DNA of 64,000 bases from Amphiscolops sp. MND2022 (taxonomy: Eukaryota). Made by a program: the position numbers and the translations under genes. The stretch is taken from positions 52,576,001 to 52,640,000 of the forward strand of contig OZ076413.1 in assembly GCA_964187785.1 (NCBI GenBank), given 5' to 3'. The notes under the pieces are model-generated. The model saw only the letters and a program-made list of their open reading frames with translations. It was not told where the DNA came from and searched no databases. Shown here piece after piece: positions 24,452 to 42,733 of this stretch; the first letter of the stretch is position 1; the number at the start of each line of letters is the position of its first letter.

Positions 24452-24581
24452 TGTCGCGTTATGACTAACGCTTTAACAAACATAATTAGGTGCTAAAGTG
24501 CAGTGTATATTTAACTAATAAATACAGAAACAAACATGAACTAGAACTAACGTTTGTTTATGGGGGAGAGAGTTGTAGATA

Positions 24582-24805
24582 AAGATGGCGGCCATAAGGC
24601 GGCGGCCATAACGTGGTAATAATGATGATGAAGTACTGTGACGAGAAAGGAATTGCACAAGTGAAGAATTCTATATTATACCGCGTATATTTGAAATACG
24701 AAAACAGCTATGATTGGTGGCATGTAAACCATGCCTGCTACGCAGCGCACGATAAGAAACGCTTGGCTGTATATATACGGCCAACGCAGGCGAGGAGATT
24801 CACAC
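24582..24805 (+). promoter_or_regulatory. Putative LTR promoter: YY1/Pho-type site, TATA box and initiator
   Basis: AAGATGGCGGC at 24582-24592 plus a second GCGGCCAT; TATATATA at 24770-24777; TCA at 24800-24802, ~30 nt downstream. Confidence 0.5.
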
Positions 24806-25216
24806 ACTTATTGAAACGGACAGAGCTTAAACTTAAAAGCTCTCGTTTCTCTTCACTTCTCTTCCACTTCTCTCCCCTCACCCCTGCTCTTCTTTCTTAC
24901 TTTACCCCCTTTCCTCTCACTTTACTATTATCTTCCCCTTCAGACTTAGAAAGTCTATTTCTCGCCTTCACATTTCAATTCAGATTTCTATTTAACTCAA
25001 CAAAACTTCTTGCTTTATAACTCAGATCCAATGATTCTCTTTTAATCCTACCCTTGCATCTTAGAATATTTCTCCACTCATCCTTGATTTGACTTCAACT
25101 TCCAGAACCAATCTTCCCTTACAAGAAATTTCTAACTTAGAAATTTCTCTTCAATTTCGTCTCCGGTTTGGTGAGTCTGACTATTTAGACCTTTCAGTAG
25201 AGATTTCACTCTCTCT

Positions 25217-25461
25217 GAAACTTCAAATTTAGCTATTTTCCGCTGATTTCAATTCTGCGGTTGACAAAACTTTGACTTTAACTATTTTCCGCCGATATCA
25301 ATTCTGCGGTTGACAAAACTTCAAATTTAGCTATTTTCCGCTGATTTCAATTCTGCGGTTGACAAAACTTTGACTTTAACTATTTTCCGCCGATATCAAT
25401 TCTGCGGTTGACAAAACTTCAAATTTAGCTATTTTCCGCTGATTTCAATTCTGCGGTTGAC
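25217..25461 (+). repeat. 49-bp tandem repeat, alternating A/B variants (ABABA, 5 units) in the 5' LTR
   Basis: A=aaaacttcaaatttagctattttccgctgatttcaattctgcggttgac; B=aaaactttgactttaactattttccgccgatatcaattctgcggttgac. Confidence 0.95.
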
Positions 25462-26130
25462 AAAACTTTAACTTTGATTATTTTCATTAGAACTAAATAG
25501 TTCTATAAAGTTGACGTTACATAAACTCACATAAGAAAAGGGATGATTAAAATTTTAAAGTGCTATATTATGAAAAAGTCTTAATGCTATTCAATTTTCT
25601 ACTGAATAGAGACATCTAAATCAAAACTCTTCCGTTTAAAATAGTACGGATTTGTAAATTTTGTTTGAGAAAAAGATTTCCGAAGAAAAAGGGAAATTCT
25701 TATTATTTGTAAATAGTTTCATTTTCTTGAATGATAAATTGTAAAAGTTATATTACTTCTTCTTGTAAAGTGAAGTTGTAATCTTTATTAATCTGAGATT
25801 TGTAACAATTGAAAGAAATATGGCTATGTCCAGAAATTGTTCACTTTCAATATTCTCAACTCATTCGTAATTAAACATATTTATCCTCCATACATTTTCA
25901 GTAAACGGGAAGCTCATTTACAAACACCGCCTTGCGCGACTCACGCAATTTCTTTTGTTCGCACGTACACGCAAGGCACCCCTTTATCAGTAAGTTGCTA
26001 ATTTATTTATTGGGACTTATACTTGTTAAATCAATAACAGAACCGTCGCGAGATAGTACCTTGTAAAATGCAAACAAGGACTTGACAGATTAAAACTAAT
26101 AAACAAATTTCACCCATGCGTGCGACAAAC

Positions 26131-26147
26131 TGGTGCGACCAGTGAGG
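26131..26147 (+). promoter_or_regulatory. Primer-binding site
   Basis: TGGTGCGACCAGTGAGG 3 nt after the LTR; begins TGG, complementary to tRNA CCA. Cognate tRNA not assigned. Confidence 0.75.
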
Positions 26148-27164
26148 CACCTTTTTCTCTTGTAATAGAGAAGTAAATGAGCTATCTGTTAGAATCCCTA
26201 CTCTCAGAAGTAAGGGTTACTTACTTATTTCTCTTAACATTACTTCTAATTTTCTTCTTTCTCCTACTGCCTCAATATGTGGCTTCTCTAATCTATATAA
26301 ATCGTAAAACTGCTAGTAAATACTCTAACAGAATCTCTCCAGCCTAACAGCTTTGGGAAGAGTTTATGCACTACTCTCTTTCTTTCAATCCCCAAAACCA
26401 TTTGTTAGAAATGATTTACCTTTACGAAAATACTATGAGATTACCATCAGTCCTAAACAAGAATGAAACTGACTCTATACGCTTTATTTAAAGGCACAGT
26501 TGGGAAATTCACTCTAGTCCGGACGGACACAAATTAAGTAAAAGCCCGCCTAGGTCTCCTCGGAGGCTGTTTGAAGGCCGTGAGCCCAGTGGGTATCTTG
26601 GAACCTATGTAGCATTCCGAGTGGGAAACCTAGTATTCTAGTGATAGTACCCAAGTGATTGCATGATAGTGATCTGGGCCCCACGCACTTAATCCTAAAG
26701 ACGAGAGTAACTCCCTCTGTGAACTAGCAGTAGTTATTTTCCTAAAGTTAAAGAAAGGCTCAACGAGCGGATGAAAGACCTAGTGGACTGACTGTACTCT
26801 TCATAGGTTTTCTTTGGGTTAACTCGGAGGATTGGTATACCCCGAACTACCCTTTTTACGATAATCTCAACACTACTGGGATTTGTAAGTATCCCCTAAA
26901 CTGTGGAATCAGAGTACAAAATATAGGAAATGAGCCTAACTTCGACCGAGAAGTGCTATTTTCATTTTTGCTAGCAGCGTATTAAGGATTTTATGATTTG
27001 TCAGACCTGTCTAATAATTATCACTATTAGAATCATAGTACAAACAATTTTTACTTTAACTCTTTGCTGTTATTCTCAAAAGCCAAGAGTATCATACCTC
27101 ATAGAGTCTTTGGCTTATTGTTCTTTGCTTCATCTTCTATCCTTTATAATCTCAATAGCTCACA

Positions 27165-28619
27165 ATGGCTGCGCAAAATTATTTGGCTTATCCAGACCTC
27201 GGCAGAGACCAATTCACGGGAACAGACCCAGATCAAGATCCTGAACAATTTATACAGCTAATTGAAAAGAAGTTCCGTTTCTCTCACGGTGATACCCCAG
27301 CAAACGGAGCAGCACTTGACGACTACAACTTCAGGAGAAAATCCTACTTTGCTACACTACTAAGAGGACCAGCAGCGGAGTGGTTCGAGACAAGTATCAC
27401 AGACGCTAACACCTGGCAAGAAATCAGAGAAAGGTTCATCACAAGATTCGCAGATGGCCGAAATAAATTCAGACACAGATTGGAAGCAGAACATGTCACC
27501 AGAAGAGATGGAGAAGAGATAAAGAATTTTCTACACAGAATCAAAATTGTTGTGGGGAAAGGCTGGCCAGATGATCTTGCCGGCGTCGCACAAAATGACA
27601 GAAACGCAGAAAGAGCAGCACAAGACCGACAAAGAAGACAAAGGTGCATCGACTACTCACTGAGAGGCCTAAGACCTCCAAAACTGAGAGAAAAGGCACA
27701 CGAATATTTAATGGATCACCCGAATGCAACCTGGGAACAATTCTCCCAAGCTGTAATAAACAAAGACCTCTCCTACACGGTAACTACCGCCCTAACTGGC
27801 GGAGAATCACATTCAGACCCACTCATACAAGAAATGCGAGACGACCTGAAGGGAATCAAACTACAAATCAAAGAACAGATGAATAACACAATCAACGCAG
27901 TAGAGAAAACTGTAGACCCTAATGCTACAGGTCGAAGAATGGCCACACGATTCTGTGGCTACTGCCGAACAAATGGGCACACACCTAACTGGTGCAGAAA
28001 GAAGATGAGAGATGAAGAAGTGAAGAAGGTTCAAAACGAAGCTAACCCAGAAAGAAGAATAACATTCACCAACGACTACAACAAAAGAACTGGACCTGAA
28101 CATGGCTCTAGATTTCAACCAAGATTACCAGATTCAGAAATCAGAAAACATATAGCTGTGGCACATCAACTAGCACTGGCTGGAGCTATGCAGTCAAACC
28201 CTGCCTGGAATCAATACGATAGACCACAAAGAAAAAATTTCAACCCAGAACGCCGACCTACGAATACAAGAGTCAATCCTGGTAACCAAAGATTTTCACA
28301 AGAAGGGAGAAGACCCTTCCTAAACAATTCTAACAACTCCAGAAGTGTTTCCCCTGGACCCCAAAGAGCAAGATCTCCGTTCAACTTCAACAGAGACCAG
28401 TCTAGCTCCTTTAATCGCAACATACAACCTCTTCCACCAAGAAATAACTCAGTTTTTCAAAGACCACTAGACAGAAACGAAAGACCCAACACTCCAACTC
28501 AATCTTACGAGCAAAGATTCCCAAAAACTAATGACATAGGAAGATCCAACACAGTACAGTTCTTAGAAACCGACTACTCGGTGAACTCTATTGCCGATTT
28601 CCGCCCTTTAAACTACTAA
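27165..28619 (+). CDS. gag: Gag (484 aa): Ty3/gypsy capsid plus one CCHC zinc knuckle and an N/R/P-rich tail
   Basis: LLRGPAAEWF...TWQEIRERFITRF capsid pattern; CGYCRTNGHTPNWC = C-x2-C-x4-H-x4-C. Confidence 0.93.
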   Translation: MAAQNYLAYPDLGRDQFTGTDPDQDPEQFIQLIEKKFRFSHGDTPANGAALDDYNFRRKSYFATLLRGPAAEWFETSITDANTWQEIRERFITRFADGRNKFRHRLEAEHVTRRDGEEIKNFLHRIKIVVGKGWPDDLAGVAQNDRNAERAAQDRQRRQRCIDYSLRGLRPPKLREKAHEYLMDHPNATWEQFSQAVINKDLSYTVTTALTGGESHSDPLIQEMRDDLKGIKLQIKEQMNNTINAVEKTVDPNATGRRMATRFCGYCRTNGHTPNWCRKKMRDEEVKKVQNEANPERRITFTNDYNKRTGPEHGSRFQPRLPDSEIRKHIAVAHQLALAGAMQSNPAWNQYDRPQRKNFNPERRPTNTRVNPGNQRFSQEGRRPFLNNSNNSRSVSPGPQRARSPFNFNRDQSSSFNRNIQPLPPRNNSVFQRPLDRNERPNTPTQSYEQRFPKTNDIGRSNTVQFLETDYSVNSIADFRPLNY

Positions 28620-28696
28620 GGTCTCCGAAAAATAGAAATAGCAGCAGTGCCCCTCTAAAATTTAGTCTTAATCTTTATTATTTTGCTGCCGGAGAC
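28607..28696 (+). promoter_or_regulatory. -1 programmed ribosomal frameshift signal
   Basis: T TTA AAC heptamer in the gag frame just before the gag stop; 7-nt spacer; GTCTCCG/CGGAGAC and GCAGCA/TGCTGC stems; pol is in the -1 frame and open from 28535. Confidence 0.8.
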
Positions 28697-31600
28697 TCAC
28701 AAAAAGATAGTGGCTTAGAAATCGAATTTCTACTAGACACTGGGGCAACATCTTCAATCATCAACTACAGGACCTTTAGAGAACTTTGCCAGTTTCAACA
28801 AGACCTAGAACTTAGTAGAAGCAATAACACAACACGGAACTACTCTGGGCAGATCATCCCTATGATGGGATACATCACCCTCAAACTCTACTACGATTCC
28901 GATGGACAACATAACTTCCCATTAACAGTCTGGATAACAGAGATGAAAACCCAAAACCTCCTTGGAATGAATTTCTGCCAAGAACAAGTTAACAAAATAC
29001 ACTTTGATCTTCCTGGCATAGAACTCAAAAGACTTATAAATACTTTCTGCTATGGTAGCCTACAACTCAACAAATGTTACCCCTATATATCACAAATTCT
29101 CTCAGTCAGAATTCCTCACTCAATGTATATCGAACCAAAGACGACAAGATGTTACAAATTCGCACCAGAAAACACTAATAACTCATTTCCTCCTGGATCT
29201 ACGTTCCTACCGAACAGGAAGGCAGTTTCTACTGGACTTAACTTCATAAATGTCCTCTGCACACGATTTGAGAAGACTTTACCAATCGTCATGGAAAACA
29301 ACAAAAACCATACAATCACCTTAGTAAAAGGAACTATCGGATACTCAATGCTTGACGTATTAGACCAAGAAATTCCGAAATACCAAATTAGAAACCCGAC
29401 AGAACTCGCATATGCTATCCTAAACGAAAACGAAGAATACAACGACTGTTTCCTATTACACTCTACCATTCCTTCACAAGATATGAACGATTGCCTCAGA
29501 ATAGAAGGAGGAAACTCGAAAACAATACTCAGCAGACCAGACCCTATCATCATCTTCGTCCCGGCCGACCTAAAGCCAGCCAAAGGCTTCTCAAAAGAAA
29601 TCCTAACGAAAATACCTTCACTTAAGGATACATGCGCAAAACAGAAACCACAGAAAGGAGAAACCATACCCTACTGGGACGAAACTCTGAAACGATTTAT
29701 ATATGTTCTGATTACGAAAGCAAAATCAAAAGACAAGATTGACCCACAATTACTAGTTCAATCTCTCGAAACTCTAAAAGCACACGCCAAAATGAGCGGC
29801 ATCAAAACTATATCCATGCTACGGGAAGCCTCAGAGCTAGAAGACTTCCAATGGCAAGACGTCACTCAACTCATTCAAGACGTATTTGCATACTCAGAAA
29901 TACAACTCCGAATTTATACAAGAAACGAACTAGATGTCTATGCCATGACTACAAGAGGAGACCCCGAATACGTACTAGAAGATGAGATACAACAATTTTC
30001 CGAGCAATTTCATCTCAAACATAGAGAGCTGGAGACAGACTTCACAAGCGACGCAAAGTCCTGTCAACCACCCTGCGATGAGCAATTTAAAATCTTCAGG
30101 CCAAAAGAAGACAACGAACGACTGATCGAGTACTACCTTCAGTATCAAAATAAAGAAGCAGTGCGATACATTAAAGAATTCGACTTTCGCTACTCAGACC
30201 TCACAGACGAAGAACTGGTTCTCCTAATAGACTTACTAATGGACGCAAGAGATGTATACTCCCAACACAAATTTGACGTAGGGAAAACCAGACAAAAATT
30301 TAACATTAAACTAGAACCTGGAGCAATTCTAAAGAGACAGAGACCCAGCAAAGTACCACTTCACCTACGAGAAAAGCTAGAGAAGCTACTCACACAACTC
30401 AAAGACGCTGATATCATCAGAGAAATGGGCGACGATGAAGAAATGGGATCCTTATTTGTGAATCCTATTATACTACAACCAAAACATGACTATGTCAAGC
30501 TGATCATAGATGCGAGATATCTAAACTCGGTGACAGATCTAACAAATTATTCCTGGCCCTTAGAACCGATCCAAACCATAATGACACTAATAAATGGAAA
30601 CATCTTCTCAGTAAGTGATCTCTCCTGTGCATTTCACCAAGTCCCATTAGACGAGCCCACGCAAAAACTCACCAGCTTCATCATTGGCGGAAAACAATAC
30701 ACCTTCACCAGGGGATTCTATGGACTCAAGGGATTACCAAGCTTCTTTAGCAGAATGATGACTATCCACTTCGAACCCCTCATCAAAAGGAAACAGGCAA
30801 TTACATACATCGACGACACGTTGATGCAAGCCAAAAACAAACAAGAAATGTTCACGGTAATTCAAGAATACCATAACTTACTGCGGAAAGCCGGACTCAA
30901 GGCAGCACCAGATAAGACACTCTTCTTCTTAAGGAAAGTCAAGTTTTTGGGACACGTGATAGCAGCCGAAGGAATACAACCCGTCGCAAAACGAGTAAAA
31001 GACCTACACAATCTCAAATCACCAAAGACCAAAACCGAAGTGAAAAGCTTCTTAGGAGCTTTGGGCTTCTATAGCTGCTACATCAAGAATCTTCATGTCG
31101 ATAGTCGACCTTTTTACGAACTCACCAAGAAAGATACAAATTTTTGCTGGAACCAAGAACACGAAGACCTTTTCCAGGAAATAAAGAAAAGAATTACCGA
31201 AGACACAGTGCTCGCAATACCCTCGACAAAATACCCCTTTCACATACACGTCGACTCGTCAAACGTTGGGACAGGATGTATCCTCATCCAACAATTCCCA
31301 GAAGGGAAACGGATCATTTCCTTCAACTCAAGAGTTTTCGCAAAGGAAGAACAAAAGATGTCCACACTACACAGAGAATTATGTGGCATAGTCTCAGCTC
31401 TTCAGACGTATGAACACTACATCATCGGATCTCGCTTCCCCATCTACCTATACTGTGATCACAAGCCGATTCTTTATCTCTGGGGAAGAAAGGGACAAAT
31501 TTCACCCCGTTTTTTCAGGTACCAAGTAATTATATCTAAATTCCCGAATCTCAAGATAATTTGGACTCCAGGAAGCAACCTAGCCTTCCCTGATATACTC

Positions 31601-33715
31601 AGTCGAAACGTCTCCATCGAGGAACACAAGAAACATCAACTCAGTCACAAAGTCATCCCAACTGACATACACTTTTTCGACGAACATGGAACCCAAGTAC
31701 ACTACAAAATCAAACACGAAGAAAATGAAGAGACATCCAAGAACGACTTTTACCCCATCTTGTACGAGAAGGGAAAAGAACGGAAAGTACTTCATCTCCA
31801 AAATGATGGGAATAACTTCACAGTTAACTCTATCTACGAGGAACCTAACCTGCCGAAAGTAGAGTCAGCACAGAGTTGCCTCGACGCTGGAAGAGAACTT
31901 GGAAAATTCGAAGAACTAAGACTCAGGTCAGGAACACGGGATAGCACTTCGGATTTATCACAAAACACTTACAGCTCCATCAACAGTGATACGGATGACG
32001 GAGCCCTCACAGACAATCAGAGTCAAGAAATAAACGAGACCAACTACGAGCTCAACACAGAAGATCCCATCGCACGTAACCCAAGTCTTCCCAAAAACGC
32101 GAAGGCAATAGAACACCCCGATCTACCTACAGATTCAACTGAAAAACAAAAGACACCAACACAGGAACTTGTCAGACAACTTGATAAACTATCCAAAGAG
32201 GTAGAACTAAACGTTACAACGATCTTACAAGAACAAATAAATGACCCGGTACTCAGCGTGGTCCGACAATGGGTAAGAACAGGAAACAAACCCGAACCAA
32301 AATCACCAGAGTTACAACACTCAAAAGGCCTCATGCGTTACTTTCAGGAATTCGACAGATTATCTATAGAAGGCCAAGGAAACCTCCTTTGTTATAACGA
32401 GCCAACTGATGACCCAACAGACGAGAATCTGAGAATCTGTCTACCTCTCTCTCTATTTTTAGCTTGCTTTCGTATGGGACATTACAACGACCTCGGCGGC
32501 CACATGGGAGCAGAAAAGTCCTTCCTCAATGCTAAGAGATTTTACTACTGGCCAGGGATGCACAACTGGATCTGTGCCCTCACACAAGATTGCGTTAGCT
32601 GCCAATCTAACAAATCCAAACAACGGAGAAACAACGAAGTCCCACTGGAAGACTGCGAAACCGAAACTCAAGTATTCAGAACCATCCACATTGATCACAA
32701 AGGACCCCTCAATCCTCCCAGTCGTGGAAATTCACATTGCCTTCTGATCATCGACGCCTTCTCACGTTACCTGATGGCATACCCAGTCAGAGACACAGGA
32801 GCACAATCTACAATCAATGCGATGGAAAAATGGATTATGCACTATGGCATCCCTCAATCTATCGTACATGATAGAGGAACAGCTTTCGTGAACACTGAAT
32901 TCGTCAATTGGACTAAAGAGTTTGGCATTACACTTCGACCAAGAACCGCACACTCACCCTGGACAAATGGCAAAGTAGAAACTCAAAATCAACACATTGC
33001 AAGATACTGGAGAAACTTCCTAAACGAATCAGGAAACAACTGGGCCCAACTAGCTGCCAAATTTGCATTCGCCCACAACACAAGCGTCAACTACACGACT
33101 GGAAAGACCCCCTACGAGATAGTGTTTTGCAATAAACCACAGATACCTATGAGTCTGAAGCTGGGACTCTACAGGAACAAAAACAAGAACTGCAAATCAC
33201 AATTCTGTCAAGGATTACCTCCTCATTGCCATAGCGAAAACCAAGTCAAAAACGAACTACTAAATGGACTATTACGACCACAACTATCACAAAGCTTATT
33301 GGAACGAGAAACAGCCTTCAAAAAGGTCTACTCATCCACATATGAAAAGTGCAGAAAACAAACAGCTCAATCACACGCCTACAGGAACAGATTTAAACTT
33401 GGGAACCACCTCAATATTGGACAAAAGGTTCTGCTAGAGAACCATCGAAAAGACCTCTCCAAAAGCCAAAAACTCCAACAACTGCGACTAGGACCCTTTA
33501 CGGTTACCAAACGAATTACAAATACAACTTACCAAATAATGGAAGATCAAAACCCCGTGAATCTCCGAACTGTACATAGGAACCATCTAATAGAATACTT
33601 TCCTAAAGAAGAAACACTCCCCCCTCTTATCGAAGAATACACTACTCCCCACCGTGGAGACACGGATTTTTATAACAATCTTGTCAAAGGAAGAATTGAA
33701 CAACTTAATGTTTAA
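28608..33715 (+). CDS. pol: Pol: protease - macrodomain - RT - RNase H - integrase (Gag-Pol fusion; ORF-track ATG at 28862 lies downstream of the protease active site)
   Basis: FLLDTGATSSII (~28727-28762, in frame upstream of the ATG); YIDD at 30806-30817; RNase H VDSS...RELCG...CDHK...DILSR; IN H-H/C-x2-C, D-x35-E (HDRG...GKVE) and GPF motif. Confidence 0.95.
29501..29920 (+). other. TARG1/OARD1 (Poa1p-like) macrodomain inside Pol, between PR and RT
   Basis: RFIYVLITK...LVQSLETLKAHAKMSGIKTISMLREASELEDFQWQDVTQLIQDVFAYSEIQLRIYT aligns by eye, ungapped, to recalled human TARG1 RYIYYLITK...[56 protein letters not shown]. Confidence 0.85.
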
Positions 33716-34117
33716 GAACCACAAAAACTCGGAGACCTCTGCATATTGCCAGTACGGAATCAACAAAACCAAATACTTGCCCGCAAAAGAACGCAAACCC
33801 CCCAGAGCACAGACTCTGGTATCATCTCTCCAGAAAATCAGTTGTTGTCAACTCCCAAGACTCCCGATCAGCCTTCGACATCACATCCTCAAAACGCAGC
33901 AACCCCTATCCTGACGTTAACTCAACGTCAACCAACTCCAGCACCCCCAACTAACACCCCGGCATCGTCTACCAAGTCAACGACTCCCTTGCAAGAGTTA
34001 CGAAAGGCTGTTGCCCGCCAAATAGAGAGAAATCCACGTTATCAGCGAGCACAACCCAATCAACCAGCACGACAGTCCAAACTTCGTGAAAGGACTAGAA
34101 TTGGTTACAAAGAATAA
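33716..34117 (+). CDS. In-frame P/T/Q-rich continuation of Pol beyond a single TAA (probable integrase tail)
   Basis: Same frame as pol, open for 133 codons, ends RYQRAQ...KLRERTRIGYKE, resembling basic gypsy IN C-termini. Confidence 0.55.
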   Translation, partial: EPQKLGDLCILPVRNQQNQILARKRTQTPQSTDSGIISPENQLLSTPKTPDQPSTSHPQNAATPILTLTQRQPTPAPPTNTPASSTKSTTPLQELRKAVARQIERNPRYQRAQPNQPARQSKLRERTRIGYKE

Positions 34118-34124
34118 CCTTACT

Positions 34125-34511
34125 ATGCCGTGCCATAAAGTCTATCTAAACTTGCCTTGGCAAGTCCCGCGAGAACTCCAGTCCTTAGGAATTCTGCAGG
34201 TTACGATTACTAAAATCTACTGGACCTACAAAAACAAAATAGTTAGAATTTGTTTCTACTCCAACGACCCAGATCCTAGCCCACATAAACAACCTACGCC
34301 TAGAAAATCTAACCTTCATATACACCCAGAATCACCTACTTTCGCCCGCTTATATCAACACTTAGCCTATTATGCCGTCACCCACCATGACCCTATCCTA
34401 GAGGAACTACTATCCTACATGCCTACCCTGATACCTGACCTACAACCTTCATTACCTAACACACAAAAAGACTTATTCTGCTGTTCTACTATCTCCTCGC
34501 CTAGCTCCTAG
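34125..34511 (+). CDS. Accessory ORF A (128 aa), unknown; first of four putative paralogues
   Basis: ATG 7 nt after the Pol-tail stop; shares I-x2-I...h-x-h-x-h and S-x2-[FYA]-x2-L-x3-[LF] motifs with ORFs B-D. Confidence 0.6.
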   Translation: MPCHKVYLNLPWQVPRELQSLGILQVTITKIYWTYKNKIVRICFYSNDPDPSPHKQPTPRKSNLHIHPESPTFARLYQHLAYYAVTHHDPILEELLSYMPTLIPDLQPSLPNTQKDLFCCSTISSPSS

Positions 34512-34676
34512 CCGGATATTACCGCTTATTCGAAAAATATTATCTTTATTATTATTATTATTATTAGACTTTTTATCTATACAATTTGTGCAACCCCGAG
34601 AAGGAACTTACGAAAAGCAGCAAACACAAAAGCGTAGAAAAATAAAGTATTTCCTGGAGATGAGAGGCAATAATGC

Positions 34677-35339
34677 CTACTCAATCTCCAGGAAACCTCC
34701 CTTCTCTGCAAGTCGCCGCAGCTGAGCCGCCCGCTCCCCCATTGTCCACAATGAATAGAGGCGGGTCCACTGACCCCTCTCAAAACTAGTCAGCTGCGAG
34801 TAGCCACTTATGTAGGCTCGCAGCTGGAAGACGACTATTTCGCCGAGAGAGGACAGGAGAGTCTGCTCCCAACGGGCCCCCCAGTTAGCCCGCAAGAAAC
34901 TAGTTAGAGCATTTGGACCGGGAGGCCCAGAAACAGAAAACCCGGGGGTACCCTGAAGGGAACTAGTTAATGAAGCCCAGTTTTCTAGGCGGTCGATATC
35001 CCTATGGGTAAATAAACCCATAAAACTTTGATCCCCCGGGCTCTCCAAAACACCCTGCGAGATGGTAGAGGGAGCTTGCGGAAAAGGGCCACTAGTCCTC
35101 GGGGCCACAAACGCCACAAAAGACCCACCCCCAGAGGTCCCTGCCTGAGAACCTGATGACGCGGGAGCAGAAGAACTGCTGCGCGCTCCGCTCGACGAGG
35201 ACGGCCCAGCTGACGACGACGATTGTGGCGGCAAAGAGGTAGCGGCAGTGCCCGACACAGACCCTGGAGCAGTAGTCTCCTCATCGGTCGAGGATTCTTC
35301 GTAATAGTCGCTATAGTTGTTGTTGTTGTTGTTGCTCAT
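34677..35339 (-). CDS. Antisense accessory ORF (220 aa from MSNNNN; 231 aa from the upstream ATG at 35372), unknown
   Basis: Long ORF overlapping no sense gene; acidic/Ser-rich N-half, Trp-containing helical-looking C-half; TATAAA (minus, 35381-35386) upstream and AATAAA (minus, 34545-34550) downstream. Confidence 0.7.
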   Translation of the reverse strand: MSNNNNNNYSDYYEESSTDEETTAPGSVSGTAATSLPPQSSSSAGPSSSSGARSSSSAPASSGSQAGTSGGGSFVAFVAPRTSGPFPQAPSTISQGVLESPGDQSFMGLFTHRDIDRLENWASLTSSLQGTPGFSVSGPPGPNALTSFLRANWGARWEQTLLSSLGEIVVFQLRAYISGYSQLTSFERGQWTRLYSLWTMGERAAQLRRLAEKGGFLEIE

Positions 35340-35614
35340 CCCTAAATACAAATTTGATTTATTTAAAGTCATGCAAAATGTTTATAATTATTGATTGAAG
35401 TCAACCATATATGTATCACTATTCAACTTAGTCATCAGATATAAAATATAATATCCTACCCGGACATTTGTCTAGTTTACTACGACGACTCATGAAGTCG
35501 TAACCCTCTCTCCCCTACAAATTACCCCCAAAAACGCAATGAAATAACTGATGATTCCATTCTCAGATTTGCTATGTTTGATGCACACACGCCACAAGGC
35601 ATAACAGCTCACTG

Positions 35615-35836
35615 ATGATCATAATATTCAAAATTGACAACCGACTTTCCCAGATAACTGATATTCAGAAGGAACCCTCAACACAGAACATAATCATACA
35701 AGCCTACGCAATCGCAGAAGAAGAGAGTGAAACCTACACGTGTGTGCCAGCATCACCTATCTACCCACTACTGGAGAGTCTACTATATAATAACACACCT
35801 ACCGAAGTCTTCACAAGAGCCAAGTCAGTCCTTTAA
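35615..35836 (+). CDS. Accessory ORF B (73 aa), putative paralogue of A/C/D
   Basis: Shared motif; stop overlaps the ORF C start (TAATG). Confidence 0.5.
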   Translation: MIIIFKIDNRLSQITDIQKEPSTQNIIIQAYAIAEEESETYTCVPASPIYPLLESLLYNNTPTEVFTRAKSVL

Positions 35837-36231
35837 TGTCCTCTCCCGCAGTTGCCGTATTTCGAGGAAATAAGTACTACTTCCACACTCAATTTCAACC
35901 TCCGGTTCCTTGGAAACCCATACAACTCACGGGTGAATACGAAATACAGTCAATCTTTTACGAGATCACTACCTCGGCGATACAAGTCCGTATACTCACA
36001 CCAGAAGACAAAGAAGCACTAGTCCTCTTCCCTATTCACTTCGGGTCCAAGGAATACGCCTACCTATTCCTATCGTTCCAACAATACATACTCCAACACC
36101 CCGCCGTCCTTAAAGACAAGGCTTTCGACGACTTGGTTTATTTTATGGATATCACCCTAGTAACTAACCCCTTTGAAGAAGAGGTTAGAATCAAATATCT
36201 TCACACCCTAGTTGAGACCTATGATGTTTAA
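35836..36231 (+). CDS. Accessory ORF C (131 aa), putative paralogue
   Basis: Shared motif; TAATG coupling with B; overlaps ORF D by 11 nt. Confidence 0.65.
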   Translation: MSSPAVAVFRGNKYYFHTQFQPPVPWKPIQLTGEYEIQSIFYEITTSAIQVRILTPEDKEALVLFPIHFGSKEYAYLFLSFQQYILQHPAVLKDKAFDDLVYFMDITLVTNPFEEEVRIKYLHTLVETYDV

Positions 36232-36565
36232 AATACAACTCAAATTCCTCTGGCGTCACCCGGAAACAAACACACTTCTTGAGATCCTCTCTATAGCCTG
36301 GAAAGAGAGCGCCCCCGCACTTCAGATTGAACTCCACAGCCTCCGACCACATCAAACGGGACATTGGCTCATCCCTGTCGCCACAGACTCGACAGAAGCA
36401 GCAGATCTTGCGAAGGCGCTAACCGACTACAGGGAGATCGCTTACTTAGATCACGTTCACCCTCTGACCCTTCATCTCCTCAGCAAGTTAATCGATTTCC
36501 TCGACGCTCAGAGAGGTAACAAACACTCTCCCAGTCTAAAATCAATCAGTAATAACTACAGCTGA
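36221..36565 (+). CDS. Accessory ORF D (114 aa from MMFKIQ), putative paralogue
   Basis: Shared motif; ATG inside the last codons of ORF C. Confidence 0.6.
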   Translation: MMFKIQLKFLWRHPETNTLLEILSIAWKESAPALQIELHSLRPHQTGHWLIPVATDSTEAADLAKALTDYREIAYLDHVHPLTLHLLSKLIDFLDAQRGNKHSPSLKSISNNYS

Positions 36566-36611
36566 ACCTTCACAGATGGTTGAAGTTAGTTTCTTTTACT
36601 ATTTTTCTTCG

Positions 36612-37045
36612 GGCACTCTTTGAAAAGTAGTGAGGTTACTACTATAAAATTTTAACCTCCGCTTAGTGTCGTGCCAGCTAAGCTGCCGGTTTGATATTAC
36701 GGCTTGCCTTTTTACGGCCTTATTTCAGGATCCATAACATTAAACTAAACTAAAAGACAAATAAACTTCTCCTTCTCTTAGGTACGTGTGAACAGTAGTG
36801 AGGTTACTACTATAAAATTTTAACCTCCGCTTAGTGTTGTACCAGCTAAGCTGCCGGTTTGATATTACGGCTTGCCTTTTTACGGCCTTACTCCGAAACC
36901 TATACTTTAAACAAAAAACAACAATCTTTCCATAAGGCACTTTCCAATAGTAGTGAGGTTACTACTATAAAATTTTAACCTCCGCTTAGTGTCGTGCCAG
37001 CTAAGCTGCCGGTTTGATATTACGGCTTGCCTTTTTACGGCCTTA
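36612..37045 (+). ncRNA. Three copies of a ~110-nt structured RNA element (97-nt core) separated by unrelated spacers
   Basis: Cores at 36626-36722, 36794-36890, 36949-37045; helices AGTAG/CTACT, GAGGTTA/TAACCTC, GCTTAG/CTAAGC, GCCG/CGGC, and GGCAC/GTGCC, which co-varies to GGTAC/GTACC in copy 2. Confidence 0.7.
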
Positions 37046-37113
37046 CCGTGGATCCACATATCTATAAAAAACATTTTTCCTGATTGATTGTCAAAGACTG
37101 AAGAATTTCAGAA

Positions 37114-39261
37114 ATGAAATTATTTTACTTACTCTTTTTATGCGCCCATTACGCGCCCGTTGTGATATTACAACGTCCAACGCCAAACCTCGCTAGCGTT
37201 GCTAAAAAACTGCGAGTAACTCATTTCGACTGCGGCGAAATGACCCAAAATAAACTCTACGCATTGAATCAAGTTGAACAATGCAATGTGGCACCTGAAA
37301 ACTTAGAGGTAAGTCGTGCGAGCGTAACGTTATACACTAAACATTTCCGCCGCACTATCAACGCCACTATGTGCCGTGTGAAACATCAGAGTGAAGAATG
37401 GCATTGTGGTTATCACGACCACTCCAGTATGTCAATCCTACACGACGGAATCACCAGCGATCTTTCCCTGTCACCCGAAACCTGCAAGGCAATGGGTGAA
37501 GGCAAAGAAGTCATAATCCATGGACAACCCCTCAAATTTAAGAAAGGAGTGAAACAAGTACAGACGAGAAACGCCAAATACGGAAAGAGTTGGGACGGTG
37601 TACGCGACCCAGATACCCGAAATGAATGCAAGACAGGTGGCTGGATCAAAAGAGAAACATTCGAATCTCACATCCAAGATGCTGAATTATCAGTAAAAAC
37701 TCGAGATGGAAAAGTCCTGACTCCGTTTCAGATGGTCCTTCCCTGCCCCTTAGAACAACTAGGTTGCGAAACGACGTCACTGGACCCATACGCCTACACA
37801 TGGGCGGAGCCCGATAATTGCGTGCTTGCAGTACATAGGAAAGAAATCGTGAACATGATCAAACACGGATCTAACTACTATATTGTAAGCGGCAACGACT
37901 CCACTACCAAATTTTTATTCGAAGTCTACAACAGACCACAAAAGTATTGCAACAAACCAGACGATGTATACCCGACCAACTACGAATCCCTGTACGTTTC
38001 AATCCAACTTGGTGGCTTCGACATGACGTCCGGCAGACGACTCGGCATCTCCATGGGAGAGACATCTAAACTACAATATTATTCACCCGAAGATGGTTCT
38101 GCTAATGGCCGACTCCACCTCTTTCGAGGCCCGAGCGACCCCAACCCTAATACACCTCATTACCTCAACATGGATTACGAGTTACACCAAGGGACAAAGC
38201 TTGATTATCTCTTCTTTGAGAGCACTCGTCTCCTCGAAGCTTCAGAAATCCAGCTCCTCAAAGCACAATGCGAACAAGAAAGAACTCAAATCCTTACTAT
38301 TTTGATGCTATCAATGGAAAATCCTCGCCTCGCCGGATACATGCTCACGGGAAATCGCTCAATGTTCCTGAACACAGATGGCAGCCTCGCTTGGCTCTAC
38401 CACTGTCCGGAATCCCACTCACCTCTTCACACGATGAACCGATGCTACGACCGCATACCCATCTTCTACAAAGGAGTGGTTGCCTTCGTGGACCCAATCA
38501 CCCGACAGACCTATCCTAACGCGAACGCCCAAAATTGCAGCGATCGCATTAAGAACCTCTTTCAATTGGATATGGAAGACAAAGACTCCTGGTTTACCCT
38601 CACTCCTTCACCCGAACATCGCGACCGACCTGCTATCTTCGGACCCAAAGACATACAACCAATGATTACTAGATCCTTCCCTGGTTCACAAGACGCGGGA
38701 ATGTATACGCCTAAACAACTCTCAGAATTTTGGGACAACATCCTCATCAGCGCAGCGTCTCGCAACGCCCTCCAGAAGTTCTCACGAGAGCTCATCACAC
38801 CCTCAATGGCCCATAGTGGACCTGAATCTTTCGCGTATTATGCACCCCGTACAGATTTTTATGTTGACGGCATGATCTCACCCGATTACTTCAAAAATCA
38901 GTTCCTTGAAACATTTGGAAGTATATCTTACGTACTAGAACTCTGCGGCGCGTATTTTGGCGCCTTTCTTTTCATTAAGTTCGTAATAGATATCACGGTA
39001 CTCGTCTTCCGATACTTTGAACTTCGTCACCTCACAGGTAATACACTGAGCTTCACTAAAACATTGCTCAGTGCTTCGTACAATCTTTTCTTTACTTCAG
39101 TTTTAACTTCTGTATTCACCCCGCGGGCCCCTTACGAGGATAGCGTTGAAGATAAAAACGCGAAAACTGAAGATAATGGAAAAGAAGTAGAACTCCAAGC
39201 ACTGAAGAATAAGGAAGAATCACTTTATCCCTCAGTACAGAGCTTCGTAGCTCCAATATAA
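37114..39261 (+). CDS. env: Envelope glycoprotein (715 aa), class III fusion protein of the chuvirus/Monjiviricetes type
   Basis: Signal peptide; FDC...C...C-x10-CG-x2-DH N-terminus; YTW...NC; TKLDY; QCEQER...L...NP; CYDRIP...FVDP; AGMY; TM at aa ~604-632. This layout matches chuvirus-like G proteins as recalled. Confidence 0.8.
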   Translation: MKLFYLLFLCAHYAPVVILQRPTPNLASVAKKLRVTHFDCGEMTQNKLYALNQVEQCNVAPENLEVSRASVTLYTKHFRRTINATMCRVKHQSEEWHCGYHDHSSMSILHDGITSDLSLSPETCKAMGEGKEVIIHGQPLKFKKGVKQVQTRNAKYGKSWDGVRDPDTRNECKTGGWIKRETFESHIQDAELSVKTRDGKVLTPFQMVLPCPLEQLGCETTSLDPYAYTWAEPDNCVLAVHRKEIVNMIKHGSNYYIVSGNDSTTKFLFEVYNRPQKYCNKPDDVYPTNYESLYVSIQLGGFDMTSGRRLGISMGETSKLQYYSPEDGSANGRLHLFRGPSDPNPNTPHYLNMDYELHQGTKLDYLFFESTRLLEASEIQLLKAQCEQERTQILTILMLSMENPRLAGYMLTGNRSMFLNTDGSLAWLYHCPESHSPLHTMNRCYDRIPIFYKGVVAFVDPITRQTYPNANAQNCSDRIKNLFQLDMEDKDSWFTLTPSPEHRDRPAIFGPKDIQPMITRSFPGSQDAGMYTPKQLSEFWDNILISAASRNALQKFSRELITPSMAHSGPESFAYYAPRTDFYVDGMISPDYFKNQFLETFGSISYVLELCGAYFGAFLFIKFVIDITVLVFRYFELRHLTGNTLSFTKTLLSASYNLFFTSVLTSVFTPRAPYEDSVEDKNAKTEDNGKEVELQALKNKEESLYPSVQSFVAPI

Positions 39262-39307
39262 AGCCAAAAACAATTTCAAGTTCATTCATTCATTAGTTTA
39301 CTTTTAG

Positions 39308-39889
39308 AATCTAGAACCACTATTCGACCTACCAAGCCTGGACGACGATACCCTGGATCCTATCCCAGAAAGTGACCTAGAAATCGAACCCCTATCTCCT
39401 TCAGACTTTTTGACACCAGACTCGTCTACAACAATTACCTTCCTTCCCGACCCCCCTGACTCAACGGTCCCATCATCACCCTCAAAATCTCCAACTCCAA
39501 CCTTCACACCAACGCCATCCGACCAACTCCCCTTTCCTTTGTCATTCACAGGAGACATACCACCAATCCCGTCAACACAACATCCTCCTAGATTTGGTGG
39601 AAAGGACATCAGAAGAACCACACCACAAAAACACCATCATGAATGGAACAACGAGATAGCCGATGAAGCACCCTTACATAAGCAACATAAAAGGGAATAC
39701 TTCACTAGAAAAGCCAGATACGTTAAAAAACCTAGGTTTAACGCAAACCTAAAGTATTCTCTACTCCCACAGTTTTCAACCTGGAAAATCGTCTTTTGGG
39801 ACAACAAAAGACAAGAATACACTATTGAGAACCCTGCACTGAAGGGACAGCGGCTGACAGTTCCCTTAAGATCCATATCTGCACAATGA
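39308..39889 (+). CDS. ORF E: ATG-less second exon (193 aa), acidic/Pro-Ser-Thr-rich then basic; predicted to be spliced to env codons 1-65
   Basis: Frame opens immediately after acceptor tttacttttAG (39307); phase-0 donor GAG|GTAAGT at 37308/37309. Confidence 0.6.
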   Translation, partial: NLEPLFDLPSLDDDTLDPIPESDLEIEPLSPSDFLTPDSSTTITFLPDPPDSTVPSSPSKSPTPTFTPTPSDQLPFPLSFTGDIPPIPSTQHPPRFGGKDIRRTTPQKHHHEWNNEIADEAPLHKQHKREYFTRKARYVKKPRFNANLKYSLLPQFSTWKIVFWDNKRQEYTIENPALKGQRLTVPLRSISAQ

Positions 39890-40824
39890 GCCAAAAATTA
39901 AACCCAAATGCCACCCCCTTCATCCCAAAACACAAACCCTACCTACCGATCCCTAACCCCGACTGGCCACCTATGCCTGAAGAAAACGATCAAGAAGAAC
40001 ATGCAAACCTCGAAGGAGTGGAAAGACTAAATATGTGGATTAGTGAATGGGAGAAATCAACTAGTACCTATAACCAGGGAACAAAAAGCACACCGCTTCG
40101 AAAGTCCTTCCCTTTAACGGACATTAATCAACCCCAAAAGAAGTTAGAAAACCGAATCAAACTGCTATGTACCTCAATCGAAGAGGCACGAGATAAACGT
40201 CAACAATTGGAAGTCACTATCTTCGATTTGCGAGCGACAATCAAACACCAAAGCTCCCTCCTCAGCAGAGCGAGCCAGATTGAAGCGAACGGTAAAGATT
40301 TTATCACTTGGCAAGTTTCCGCCTTCTCCACACTTTACCGAAAAGCAAGGACCTCTCCAGACGATCCCTTTCACAACATCAAAAACAGCTTCGCGAGCCC
40401 TATTTACCCAACATACCTATCAGGCTGCAAAATTTCCTTCAGAATATTCCCTTACGGGATAAACATCTTCCGTGGGACCCACTCTTCTATTAGCTGTGAA
40501 CTTCATTATAGCGACTTCACTCACCCACAAACATGGCCCTTTGATAAAACAGTAGAAGTCGAAATCCTTGATCAGAAGGACGAAGGCAACAAGTGGTCCA
40601 CACTTTTCCCAATCAACCCCCACAACCACGAAGATACCCTTCACAATCTCTACACGCACCCGAACTTCCTCAAAGAAGACTTCATCCCTCATACGAAGTT
40701 ACTTGTCAACTTCAGAGAAGCATTCCTAAACAATGACTCTATAATATTTAGAATCAAATTTAAAGAACCTTCCCCTAAGTCACTCGCGCTACATAACTCC
40801 CCCTCCTTTCAGTCTGACCCATAA
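39886..40824 (+). CDS. TRAF-like protein (312 aa): PAM2 motif, coiled coil, TRAF-C/MATH domain; no RING or zinc fingers
   Basis: FITWQVSAFS...SPIY...GCKISFRIFPYG...RGTHSSI...WPFDKTVEVEILDQ...FLNNDSIIFRI parallels TRAF FIWKISDFS...SPAFY...GYKMCLRIYLNG...RGTHLSL...WPFNQKVTLMLLDQ...YVRDDAIFIK; KLNPNATPFIP at aa 4-14. Confidence 0.88.
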   Translation: MSQKLNPNATPFIPKHKPYLPIPNPDWPPMPEENDQEEHANLEGVERLNMWISEWEKSTSTYNQGTKSTPLRKSFPLTDINQPQKKLENRIKLLCTSIEEARDKRQQLEVTIFDLRATIKHQSSLLSRASQIEANGKDFITWQVSAFSTLYRKARTSPDDPFHNIKNSFASPIYPTYLSGCKISFRIFPYGINIFRGTHSSISCELHYSDFTHPQTWPFDKTVEVEILDQKDEGNKWSTLFPINPHNHEDTLHNLYTHPNFLKEDFIPHTKLLVNFREAFLNNDSIIFRIKFKEPSPKSLALHNSPSFQSDP

Positions 40825-40849
40825 CTCATTTATTTTCTTTCATCCTGCC

Positions 40850-40860
40850 AGGGGGGTGAG
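40850..40860 (+). promoter_or_regulatory. Polypurine tract
   Basis: AGGGGGGTGAG one base before the 3' LTR. Confidence 0.85.
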
Positions 40861-40861
40861 C

Positions 40862-42733
40862 TGTCGCGTTATGACTAACGCTTTAACAAACATAATTAGG
40901 TGCTAAAGTGCAGTGTATATTTAACTAATAAATACAGAAACAAACATGAACTAGAACTAACGTTTGTTTATGGGGGAGAGAGTTGTAGATAAAGATGGCG
41001 GCCATAAGGCGGCGGCCATAACGTGGTAATAATGATGATGAAGTACTGTGACGAGAAAGGAATTGCACAAGTGAAGAATTCTATATTATACCGCGTATAT
41101 TTGAAATACGAAAACAGCTATGATTGGTGGCATGTAAACCATGCCTGCTACGCAGCGCACGATAAGAAACGCTTGGCTGTATATATACGGCCAACGCAGG
41201 CGAGGAGATTCACACACTTATTGAAACGGACAGAGCTTAAACTTAAAAGCTCTCGTTTCTCTTCACTTCTCTTCCACTTCTCTCCCCTCACCCCTGCTCT
41301 TCTTTCTTACTTTACCCCCTTTCCTCTCACTTTACTATTATCTTCCCCTTCAGACTTAGAAAGTCTATTTCTCGCCTTCACATTTCAATTCAGATTTCTA
41401 TTTAACTCAACAAAACTTCTTGCTTTATAACTCAGATCCAATGATTCTCTTTTAATCCTACCCTTGCATCTTAGAATATTTCTCCACTCATCCTTGATTT
41501 GACTTCAACTTCCAGAACCAATCTTCCCTTACAAGAAATTTCTAACTTAGAAATTTCTCTTCAATTTCGTCTCCGGTTTGGTGAGTCTGACTATTTAGAC
41601 CTTTCAGTAGAGATTTCACTCTCTCTGAAACTTCAAATTTAGCTATTTTCCGCTGATTTCAATTCTGCGGTTGACAAAACTTTGACTTTAACTATTTTCC
41701 GCCGATATCAATTCTGCGGTTGACAAAACTTCAAATTTAGCTATTTTCCGCTGATTTCAATTCTGCGGTTGACAAAACTTTGACTTTAACTATTTTCCGC
41801 CGATATCAATTCTGCGGTTGACAAAACTTCAAATTTAGCTATTTTCCGCTGATTTCAATTCTGCGGTTGACAAAACTTTGACTTTAACTATTTTCCGCCG
41901 ATATCAATTCTGCGGTTGACAAAACTTCAAATTTAGCTATTTTCCGCTGATTTCAATTCTGCGGTTGACAAAACTTTGACTTTAACTATTTTCCGCCGAT
42001 ATCAATTCTGCGGTTGACAAAACTTCAAATTTAGCTATTTTCCGCTGATTTCAATTCTGCGGTTGACAAAACTTTAACTTTGAATTTTTTCATTAGAACT
42101 AAATAGTTCTATAAAGTTGACGTTACATAAACTCACATAAGAAAAGGGATGATTAAAATTTTAAAGTGCTATATTATGAAAAAGTCTTAATGCTATTCAG
42201 TTTTCTACTGAATAGAGACATCTAAATCAAAACTCTTCCGTTTAAAATAGTACGGATTTGTAAATTTTGTTTGAGAAAAAGATTTCCGAAGAAAAAGGGA
42301 AATTCTTATTATTTGTAAATAGTTTCATTTTCTTGAATGATAAATTGTAAAAGTTATATTACTTCTTCTTGTAAAGTGAAGTTGTAATCTTTATTAATCT
42401 GAGATTTGTAACAATTGAAAGAAATATGGCTATGTCCAGAAATTGTTCACTTTCAATATTCTCAACTCATTCGTAATTAAACATATTTATCCTCCATACA
42501 TTTTCAGTAAACGGGAAGCTCATTTACAAACACCGCCTTGCGCGACTCACGCAATTTCTTTTGTTCGCACGTACACGCAAGGCACCCCTTTATCAGTAAG
42601 TTGCTAATTTATTTATTGGGACTTATACTTGTTAAATCAATAACAGAACCGTCGCGAGATAGTACCTTGTAAAATGCAAACAAGGACTTGACAGATTAAA
42701 ACTAATAAACAAATTTCACCCATGCGTGCGACA
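40862..42733 (+). repeat. 3' LTR (1872 bp)
   Basis: Copy of the 5' LTR, 196 bp longer because of four extra 49-bp units. Confidence 0.97.
41627..42067 (+). repeat. 49-bp tandem repeat, ABABABABA (9 units) in the 3' LTR
   Basis: Counted directly; 4 x 49 = 196 bp accounts for the whole LTR length difference. Confidence 0.95.

Follow-up and report, generated by a model that had tools for sequence, protein, structure and literature searches.

Retroelements export their unspliced genomic RNA by means of cis signals or of proteins of the element itself, as in the MPMV CTE, the Rev/RRE-type systems, and CERV, to which the motif described here is likened by role. In the MusD MTE, a pseudoknot and a long-range loop pairing are both needed for export, according to the passages on its structure (PMC4588558; PMC3362945), and the CERV-dependent export of Cer1 in C. 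elegans is a case of an export protein encoded by an invertebrate LTR element itself, whereby term searches in the text of that article found no cis element described (PMC10309623). For large invertebrate LTR elements, it is mostly obscure how unspliced genomes are exported, protected, and selected. The type 6 (IGR) IRES types 6e and 6f are described, in the sections devoted to them, as intergenic RNAs of about 110–125 nt with an H-type pseudoknot inside a larger pseudoknot (10.1101/2024.04.17.590008). The xrRNAs of classes 1–3 form a double pseudoknot with the 5' end, occur in tandem copies, and are intergenic in the case of plant viruses.

The locus analyzed here is part of the genome of Amphiscolops sp. 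MND2022 (contig OZ076413.1), and the window, which is the whole stretch of 64,000 nt that was analyzed, contains a triplicated RNA motif just upstream of an env gene. As judged from sequence comparison, it very probably represents a real and apparently undescribed structured RNA module, most likely a variant of the cis-acting genome signals of retroelements. A literature search covering openly accessible main texts (subscription papers and supplements lay outside its scope) found no paper describing the motif. The module and the MTE are both non-coding and located 3' of pol in an LTR element. However, the MTE is presented in the passages cited above as a single multi-stem element of ~400 nt that adjoins the 3' LTR, whereas the module has ~80–110 nt, occurs in one to five copies before env, and is linked to export by analogy. 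In comparison with the 6e and 6f IRES types, the module displays a mirror-image order, several copies, and an AUG start at varying distance, and it has neither a PKI at a non-AUG start nor an L1.1 internal loop. Instead of a PKI before a non-AUG start, there is an env AUG about 20–80 nt after the last unit, and instead of a domain 1 hairpin with L1.1 and a PKIII located 3', the module opens with the single strand and has its hairpin downstream of the pseudoknot. This contrast builds on the strand order of the type 6 IRES domains 1 and 2. In comparison with the xrRNAs, as far as their classes are set out in the relevant parts of PMC12397905, the module lacks both a three-way junction and a ring closed by a large apical loop, its 5' linker is variable, and it is kept where no downstream gene is made. 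The helices are arranged serially, where class 1 and 2 xrRNAs form a three-way junction with the 5' end, and the loops L1 and L2 of 1 and 0 nt leave no ring with a large apical loop as in class 3.

The Host Element and Its Three Units

The module resides on the plus strand of an 18.3-kb Ty3/gypsy LTR retrotransposon with env (24452–42733), which is bounded by LTRs at 24452–26127 and 40862–42733 and by a 4-bp target duplication. All of its genes named below as sense lie on the plus strand as well. The gag ORF ends at 28619 and overlaps with pol (28535–33715), which encodes protease, RT, RNase H, and integrase according to its Pfam domains, so that both together cover 27165–33715. The env gene (37114–39261) encodes a Monjiviricetes (chuvirus-type) fusion glycoprotein (PF24664), whose AUG is followed by a hydrophobic, signal-peptide-like stretch, and a further accessory ORF (39829–40824) carries a MATH/TRAF domain and a weak PAM2 match. 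The LTRs, the target duplication, gag, the PR-RT-RH-IN order, and the fusion glycoprotein are those of a Ty3/gypsy element with env. Like the giant gypsy elements Burro from planarians, the host element has a fusion env of mononegavirus type and a MATH/TRAF domain, but it encodes the two in separate ORFs downstream of pol, and the parts of the Burro paper that describe these elements contain no such RNA motif (PMC6431247). Two more accessory ORFs (35836–36231 and 36221–36565) belong to no known family and gave no match in Pfam or Atlas.

Some minor features of the element were recorded as well. The LTRs contain a tandem array of a 49-nt repeat (25120–25615 and 41530–42221), which is ~200 nt longer in the 3' LTR, and are 99.7% identical apart from this array. 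Between protease and RT there is an insert of ~130 aa (29525–29920), for which Pfam yielded nothing and which by eye we take to be macro-domain-like. A 133-codon open frame with a basic C-terminus (33716–34117) follows the pol stop in frame and is a possible readthrough extension. On the minus strand, an antisense ORF (34677–35345) that family B (see below) shares at 35% identity is oriented divergently to the sense accessory ORFs, and the AT-rich gap between them (35382–35540), which has a TATA-like site, is a possible two-way internal promoter.

The gap from the last accessory stop (36565) to the env AUG (37114) is filled by the array, with 46 nt separating the stop from unit 1. None of the ORFs crosses the array, and on this ground a frameshift or readthrough stimulator was rejected. 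The sole AUG in the gap opens an upstream ORF of 15 codons (36576–36623), which the autonomous lineages shown have preserved, whereas in young non-autonomous copies it is altered and has lost its start. The three units are located at 36612–36722, 36781–36890, and 36936–37045, the last one ending 68 nt upstream of the env AUG, which places them just before env as the sequence-only reading had proposed. Their 97-nt cores begin at 36626, 36794, and 36949. As that reading had also noted, cores 1 and 3 are identical over 97 nt, while copy 2 deviates only at core positions 45 and 48 (36838 and 36841). Beyond the cores, identity collapses sharply, in line with the claim of unrelated AT-rich spacers, except that the 30 nt preceding each core are 63–67% pyrimidine.

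All helices named in the earlier reading are present in each of the three copies. In unit 1, an H-type pseudoknot is formed by S1 (36626–36630 with 36639–36643) and S2 (36632–36638 with 36653–36659), with an L1 of 1 nt and an A-rich L3 (36644–36652). It is followed by hairpin H3 (36661–36666 with 36678–36683), hairpin H4 (36685–36688 with 36700–36703), whose loop comprises 11 nt (36689–36699), and a tail (36704–36722). A 5' pentamer (36612–36616) pairs with a loop pentamer of H3 (36671–36675). The 5' pentamers of units 2 and 3 start at 36781 and 36936 and their loop pentamers at 36839 and 36994, whereby the middle pair of this 5'-strand/loop helix is the U-A version in unit 2. An L2 of 0 nt together with an L1 of 1 nt corresponds to a classical H-type fold. 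A loose five-helix descriptor (H-type pseudoknot, 6-bp hairpin, 4-bp hairpin, and 5-bp pairing of the loop with the 5' strand, with G-U allowed) is satisfied by all three copies but by only one in 3000 dinucleotide shuffles, a number that rises to two when the last pairing is left out, while pseudoknot-free folding is unremarkable (z –0.8 to –1.9). The tail and its copies resemble a shortened duplicate of H4 and offer an alternative partner for the 5' strand of H4; in family B the tail is found after the last core only. The Rfam covariance models yielded no match up to E = 10 over 36560–37120 and none in the motif over 28000–42000, and just two chance-level matches, far below the gathering score, in family B. 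No family thus matches the motif in the Rfam scan that had been suggested, and the earlier failure to match it to the hammerhead, twister, pistol, or HDV consensus is borne out. Likeness to the MTE and CTE was also compared through Rfam, where no CTE-like match was found.

Copies of the Module and Their Covariation

Searching the 1.07-Gb genome, the pseudoknot pattern was found at 255 places in comparison with one in the control, and the last-loop pattern at 285 places in comparison with 21. From 106 of 219 loci, the others being repeat fetches of the same places or free of the motif, 247 distinct units were extracted, which form 102 arrays of one to five units each; the triplication seen in the window is thus one of several copy numbers. 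In S1, L3, and the last loop, the extraction descriptor tolerated just one or two changes, whereas S2, H3, and H4 were left free, so that part of the invariance of the first three stems from the search itself and the number of short arrays may be too low. A profile search without this constraint gave the same picture. Of the 20 isolated loop matches that were fetched, 12 were due to chance, the other 8 proved to be copies of the motif adjoining env remnants, and every unit examined in context lies directly upstream of env or of an env remnant. Two of the arrays in a tandem run of 5.6-kb partial elements (G000:C11:40548278-40563011; L025–L027) are followed by the LTR, with no env.

Three families can be told apart by their env, which is 92–100% (family A), 75–77% (family B), or ~62% (family C) identical to that of the window. 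The motif is known from the two related autonomous families A and B of this one genome. In family C, which has env, there was no match below E = 1 in eight loci. Family B contains three cores spaced by 87–91 nt, whereas a 5' pentamer occurs only once, before the first core, and a matching loop and tail are confined to the third core. This layout makes the ~80-nt core the repeated unit, with the long-range pairing closing whatever lies between; the 5' linker of 6–13 nt spans all three cores in this family. The core combines the H-type pseudoknot with two hairpins, of which the first is variable and the second has a near-invariant loop of 11 nt. Its family B versions are identical to the window core at 68 of 78, 61 of 76, and 71 of 80 positions (80–89%), while the env genes of families A and B match at 58 of 148 four-fold sites, i.e., their synonymous sites are near-saturated. 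As far as sequence conservation can tell, this establishes the ~80-nt core as the unit of selection. Copies within one element are homogenized.

Beyond this genome, the env proteins P0004, P0006, and P0013 as queries led only to families A–C in their own genome (54–65% identity). Viral contigs contained four matches to a 17-mer, covering the last hairpin only, and no env relative was found in them, while four env relatives were found in metagenomes, none of them with the DNA upstream. Families A and B have the accessory ORFs at 35836 and 36221 in common, whereas the 3.2–3.3 kb fetched of family C do not contain them. Family C has repeats of its own. In locus L163 (1350–1870; the same region of L075, L161, L162, and L164–L166), each element carries 8–14 tandem hairpin units of ~43 nt ahead of two accessory ORFs. 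Almost every unit has an AG in front of it and a donor-like GUAAA behind it, and the array is possibly a second cis RNA. Moreover, a duplicated hairpin-rich unit of 76 nt and a strong pyrimidine-tract acceptor lie shortly before env (L163:2856-3007 and L075:311-462), in the place where families A and B carry the pseudoknot array.

The covariation in other copies, which had been named as a check of the fold, is present as compensatory changes in four of the five helices, namely stem 2 of the pseudoknot (S2), the two hairpins (H3 and H4), and the pairing of the 5' strand with the loop. In a hand-picked set of 20 copies, both partners have changed in 7 of 22 pairs (in S2, H3, and H4), a count that none of 500 shuffles attained and that is inflated by the choice of copies and their kinship. 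In the whole set of 247 units, variant pair types present in at least three units are still able to pair in 14 of 23 cases (nine Watson–Crick, five G-U), whereas rarer types do so in 8 of 59 cases, none of them Watson–Crick (p = 4e-5 against the commoner types). The middle pair of the 5'-strand/loop helix is C-G on both sides in 185 units, U-A on both sides in 34, mixed in one, and otherwise changed in 27. Hence, the exchange from C-G to U-A that had first drawn attention in copy 2 is real, but the 34 U-A units probably share one origin and count as a single inherited event, so that the stronger evidence comes from the other helices. Of the two changes in copy 2, the one at position 48 is compensatory, while the one at position 45 also occurs elsewhere without covariation.

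Stem 1 is invariant and displays no compensatory change in any unit. Since it never varies, its pairing is deduced from complementarity together with the classical H-type geometry, in which the 7-bp stem is crossed by a loop of 1 nt and the 5-bp stem by an A-rich loop. The loop of H4, which is too invariant to show covariation, might resemble a T-loop motif (U-turn pentaloop, non-canonical U-A closure, and intercalating partner). G-U pairs fixed in single lineages and the geometry of L1 and L3 point to a fold that would fit the plus strand only. Altogether, covariation across families, together with the conservation seen against a background of near-saturated synonymous sites, gives good support to the selected RNA tertiary structure that had been proposed from three copies.

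The Non-autonomous Family

The array is also part of a non-autonomous family with at least 40 copies, as a query across its env deletion gave 40 matches among 143 candidates, all 40 of which span the junction. All 14 copies that were fetched whole have no gag-pol and carry one to four units each. Six of them, which span 6.1–6.7 kb, have LTRs that are at least 99.5% identical, and target duplications were found in several. The env frame stops within 3–59 codons in 29 of 30 junction copies, and the remaining one has no recognizable start. The 5' leader is retained to about 26230, whereas the accessory ORFs 35836/36221 are lacking. Two other ORFs without a Pfam match were observed in this family, one of 182 aa that is 51% like an accessory ORF of family B (L178:3448-3996) and one of 102 aa related to the frame after the pol stop (L177:3370-3678).

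In the 11 most diverged of 29 copies, selected by an env remnant less than 93% identical to the reference, the cores mismatch at 38 of 1047 positions and the env remnant at 646 of 6242; for the eight older copies available whole, the values are 27 of 764 and 509 of 4728. The cores are kept about three times better than the adjoining env remnant. Successive deletions have trimmed the region, with the flanks reaching to 36264 and 37481 in earlier forms and to 36476 and 37277 in later ones, and the array is present in all of them. Recombination explains part of the likeness of the cores and could do so without selection, as several young non-autonomous copies carry whole arrays from family A (99% over 656 nt). 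Spacers between the cores are diverged at 26 of 208 positions, or 10 of 156 when L183 is left out, compared to 20 of 676 in the cores, so that the difference is clear only with that copy in the set. In the reference non-autonomous copy, however, the last core is identical to subfamily A2 at 96 of 97 positions, while the spacers reach ~67% and the flanks ~80%, a pattern that recombination does not easily explain.

Possible Functions of the Module

Because the cores are constrained in mobile elements that have no gag, no pol, and no working env, a cis signal on the full-length RNA is favored over an IRES for env, an xrRNA, or a ribozyme. A ribozyme would cut the full-length RNA, and an IRES or xrRNA would serve env only, which suggests that the module acts on the full-length RNA rather than as a switch for the adjoining env. 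Our main reading, which we hold tentatively at roughly 40%, is that of a multi-copy, protein-bound export or stability element that would work like the MusD MTE. The units would fold in the sense, full-length transcript of the element, with the 5' pentamer pairing with the loop of the variable hairpin and thereby closing one unit or, in family B, three cores. The fixed single-stranded parts, namely the face of stem 1, the A-rich L3, and the H4 loop, might form a protein-binding surface, and several copies might act additively. The bound factor could come from the host, as an export or RNA-stability factor, or be an accessory protein encoded by the autonomous element, and it would let the long unspliced genomic RNA exit the nucleus and escape decay. 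Non-autonomous elements would then keep the array, and sometimes swap in the current version of the helper, because they need the same RNA handling. In common with transport elements, there is an unspliced genomic RNA, a non-coding position 3' of pol, and a selected structure with long-range pairings. A cis need in elements without replication proteins might be reflected in the constrained arrays of the non-autonomous copies, yet capture of whole blocks also occurs. Leader-type features before env, the missing motif in family C, the capture of cores by recombination, and the absence of compensation in S1 would count against an export function. Of the four roles that the sequence-only reading had listed, export or packaging fits best, whereas the env IRES, the nuclease-resistant element, and the ribozyme are weakened, since derivatives with a dead env stay mobile and keep their cores under constraint and since the topology departs from the descriptions of type 6 IRESs and xrRNAs.

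Helper and parasite would both need export, protection from decay, and packaging, and the data are compatible both with export and with packaging. The second reading is a packaging or dimerization signal, which the Gag of the autonomous element would read and by which helper and parasite RNAs would share a particle; we regard it as rather unlikely. The retention and constraint of the array in non-autonomous copies would agree with it, the repeated capture of the helper array and LTRs by the parasite implies co-packaging, and the presence of the motif in families A and B together with its absence from C is as expected for an element-specific reader. On the other hand, the parasite has retained the 5' leader too, which is where retroviral packaging signals are usually found, and no palindromic loop is conserved across families. 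A control of env expression, whether by a structured splice acceptor whose AG at the core start is buried in stem 1, by an IRES or reinitiation element, or by an xrRNA that leaves an env subgenomic RNA, appears similarly improbable; parasites would in this case keep the array by hitch-hiking or recombination. The position of all units examined in context, just before env or its remnant, speaks for such a control, and so does a pyrimidine in front of the first AG (YAG) in 246 of 247 units, after a pyrimidine-rich stretch. There is also just one AUG in the 548 nt before env where 8.8 are expected, a deficit whose weight is lowered by the triplication, and its short upstream ORF is conserved in the autonomous lineages shown and has lost its start in young parasites. 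Tandem copies are also typical of flaviviral xrRNAs. However, the cores are still constrained after env has died, and the distance from unit to env AUG ranges from about 20 to 80 nt. No pseudoknot is located at the start codon, where the type 6 IRES has its PKI (10.1101/2024.04.17.590008), and the helix order mirrors domains 1–2 of that IRES, while the three-way junction and the class 3 architecture given in the class descriptions of PMC12397905 are missing. Further points against this reading are the 6–13-nt linker reaching over three cores in family B and the 16 units without a 5' pentamer, none of which has foreign sequence joined at the AG; the C/T pattern may moreover reflect two inherited states. 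A dual role in genome handling and env expression is possible.

A new class of self-cleaving ribozyme is highly improbable. A compact double pseudoknot with fixed single-stranded bases would suit it, and its first domain we take to be about the size of the pistol P1, pseudoknot, and A-rich linker. Nevertheless, Rfam gave no match, and up to five sense-strand cleavage sites, which mobile non-autonomous elements keep, would cut a genome that needs reverse transcription. The helix order and catalytic consensus are not those of known self-cleaving ribozymes either, as judged from the negative Rfam scan and from the helix orders of HDV, twister, hammerhead, hatchet, and pistol. Hardly more credit is given to a DNA-level element such as an internal promoter, or to a neutral triplication whose copies gene conversion keeps similar. 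For these, one can cite that L3 holds a nearly invariant TATA-like heptamer, that the H4 loop resembles a B box, and that copies within an element are alike. Against them stand two-sided changes in four helices and G-U pairs, which work on one strand only, and runs of T4–T5 within the unit that would stop Pol III; gene conversion, furthermore, cannot give 80–89% identity between families with near-saturated synonymous sites.

Returning to a signal on the genomic RNA, a more specific and clearly doubtful version is that the new fold marks the genome of this env-bearing gypsy element from an invertebrate and that one of the element's small accessory proteins reads it. Such a Rev/RRE-like or packaging pair would be of independent origin and would be exploited by a parasite that updates its copy from the helper. 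In a comparison among three families, the accessory ORFs 35836/36221 accompany the motif in A and B, and neither was found with C. In contrast to the mapped retroviral elements of 400–1400 nt, the ~80-nt module, supported by covariation, would be a small handle on how such elements treat their genomes that lends itself to direct tests and the boundaries of which are set by natural deletions and by the parasite family. It would provide a new RNA fold for structure work and, if active on heterologous RNA, a candidate export or stability tag.

Three other candidates were rejected. The H4 loop can pair over nine bases with the branch region of the host U2 snRNA, but so do 13 of 152 control windows, and the duplex energy is at the 60th percentile, which argues against a U2 decoy. 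No copy of the 3' polypurine tract as a central tract was found near the array. A published flatworm spliced leader resembles the tail, as seen in the leader sequence given in PMC8629364, but a 21-nt piece of it was found at three places (up to three mismatches) in comparison with ten in the control, and mimicry of that leader was dismissed. As a side observation, the host genome contains at least 46 U2 snRNA genes in tandem with 717- and 1089-bp spacing (G000:C4:81044275-81083745).
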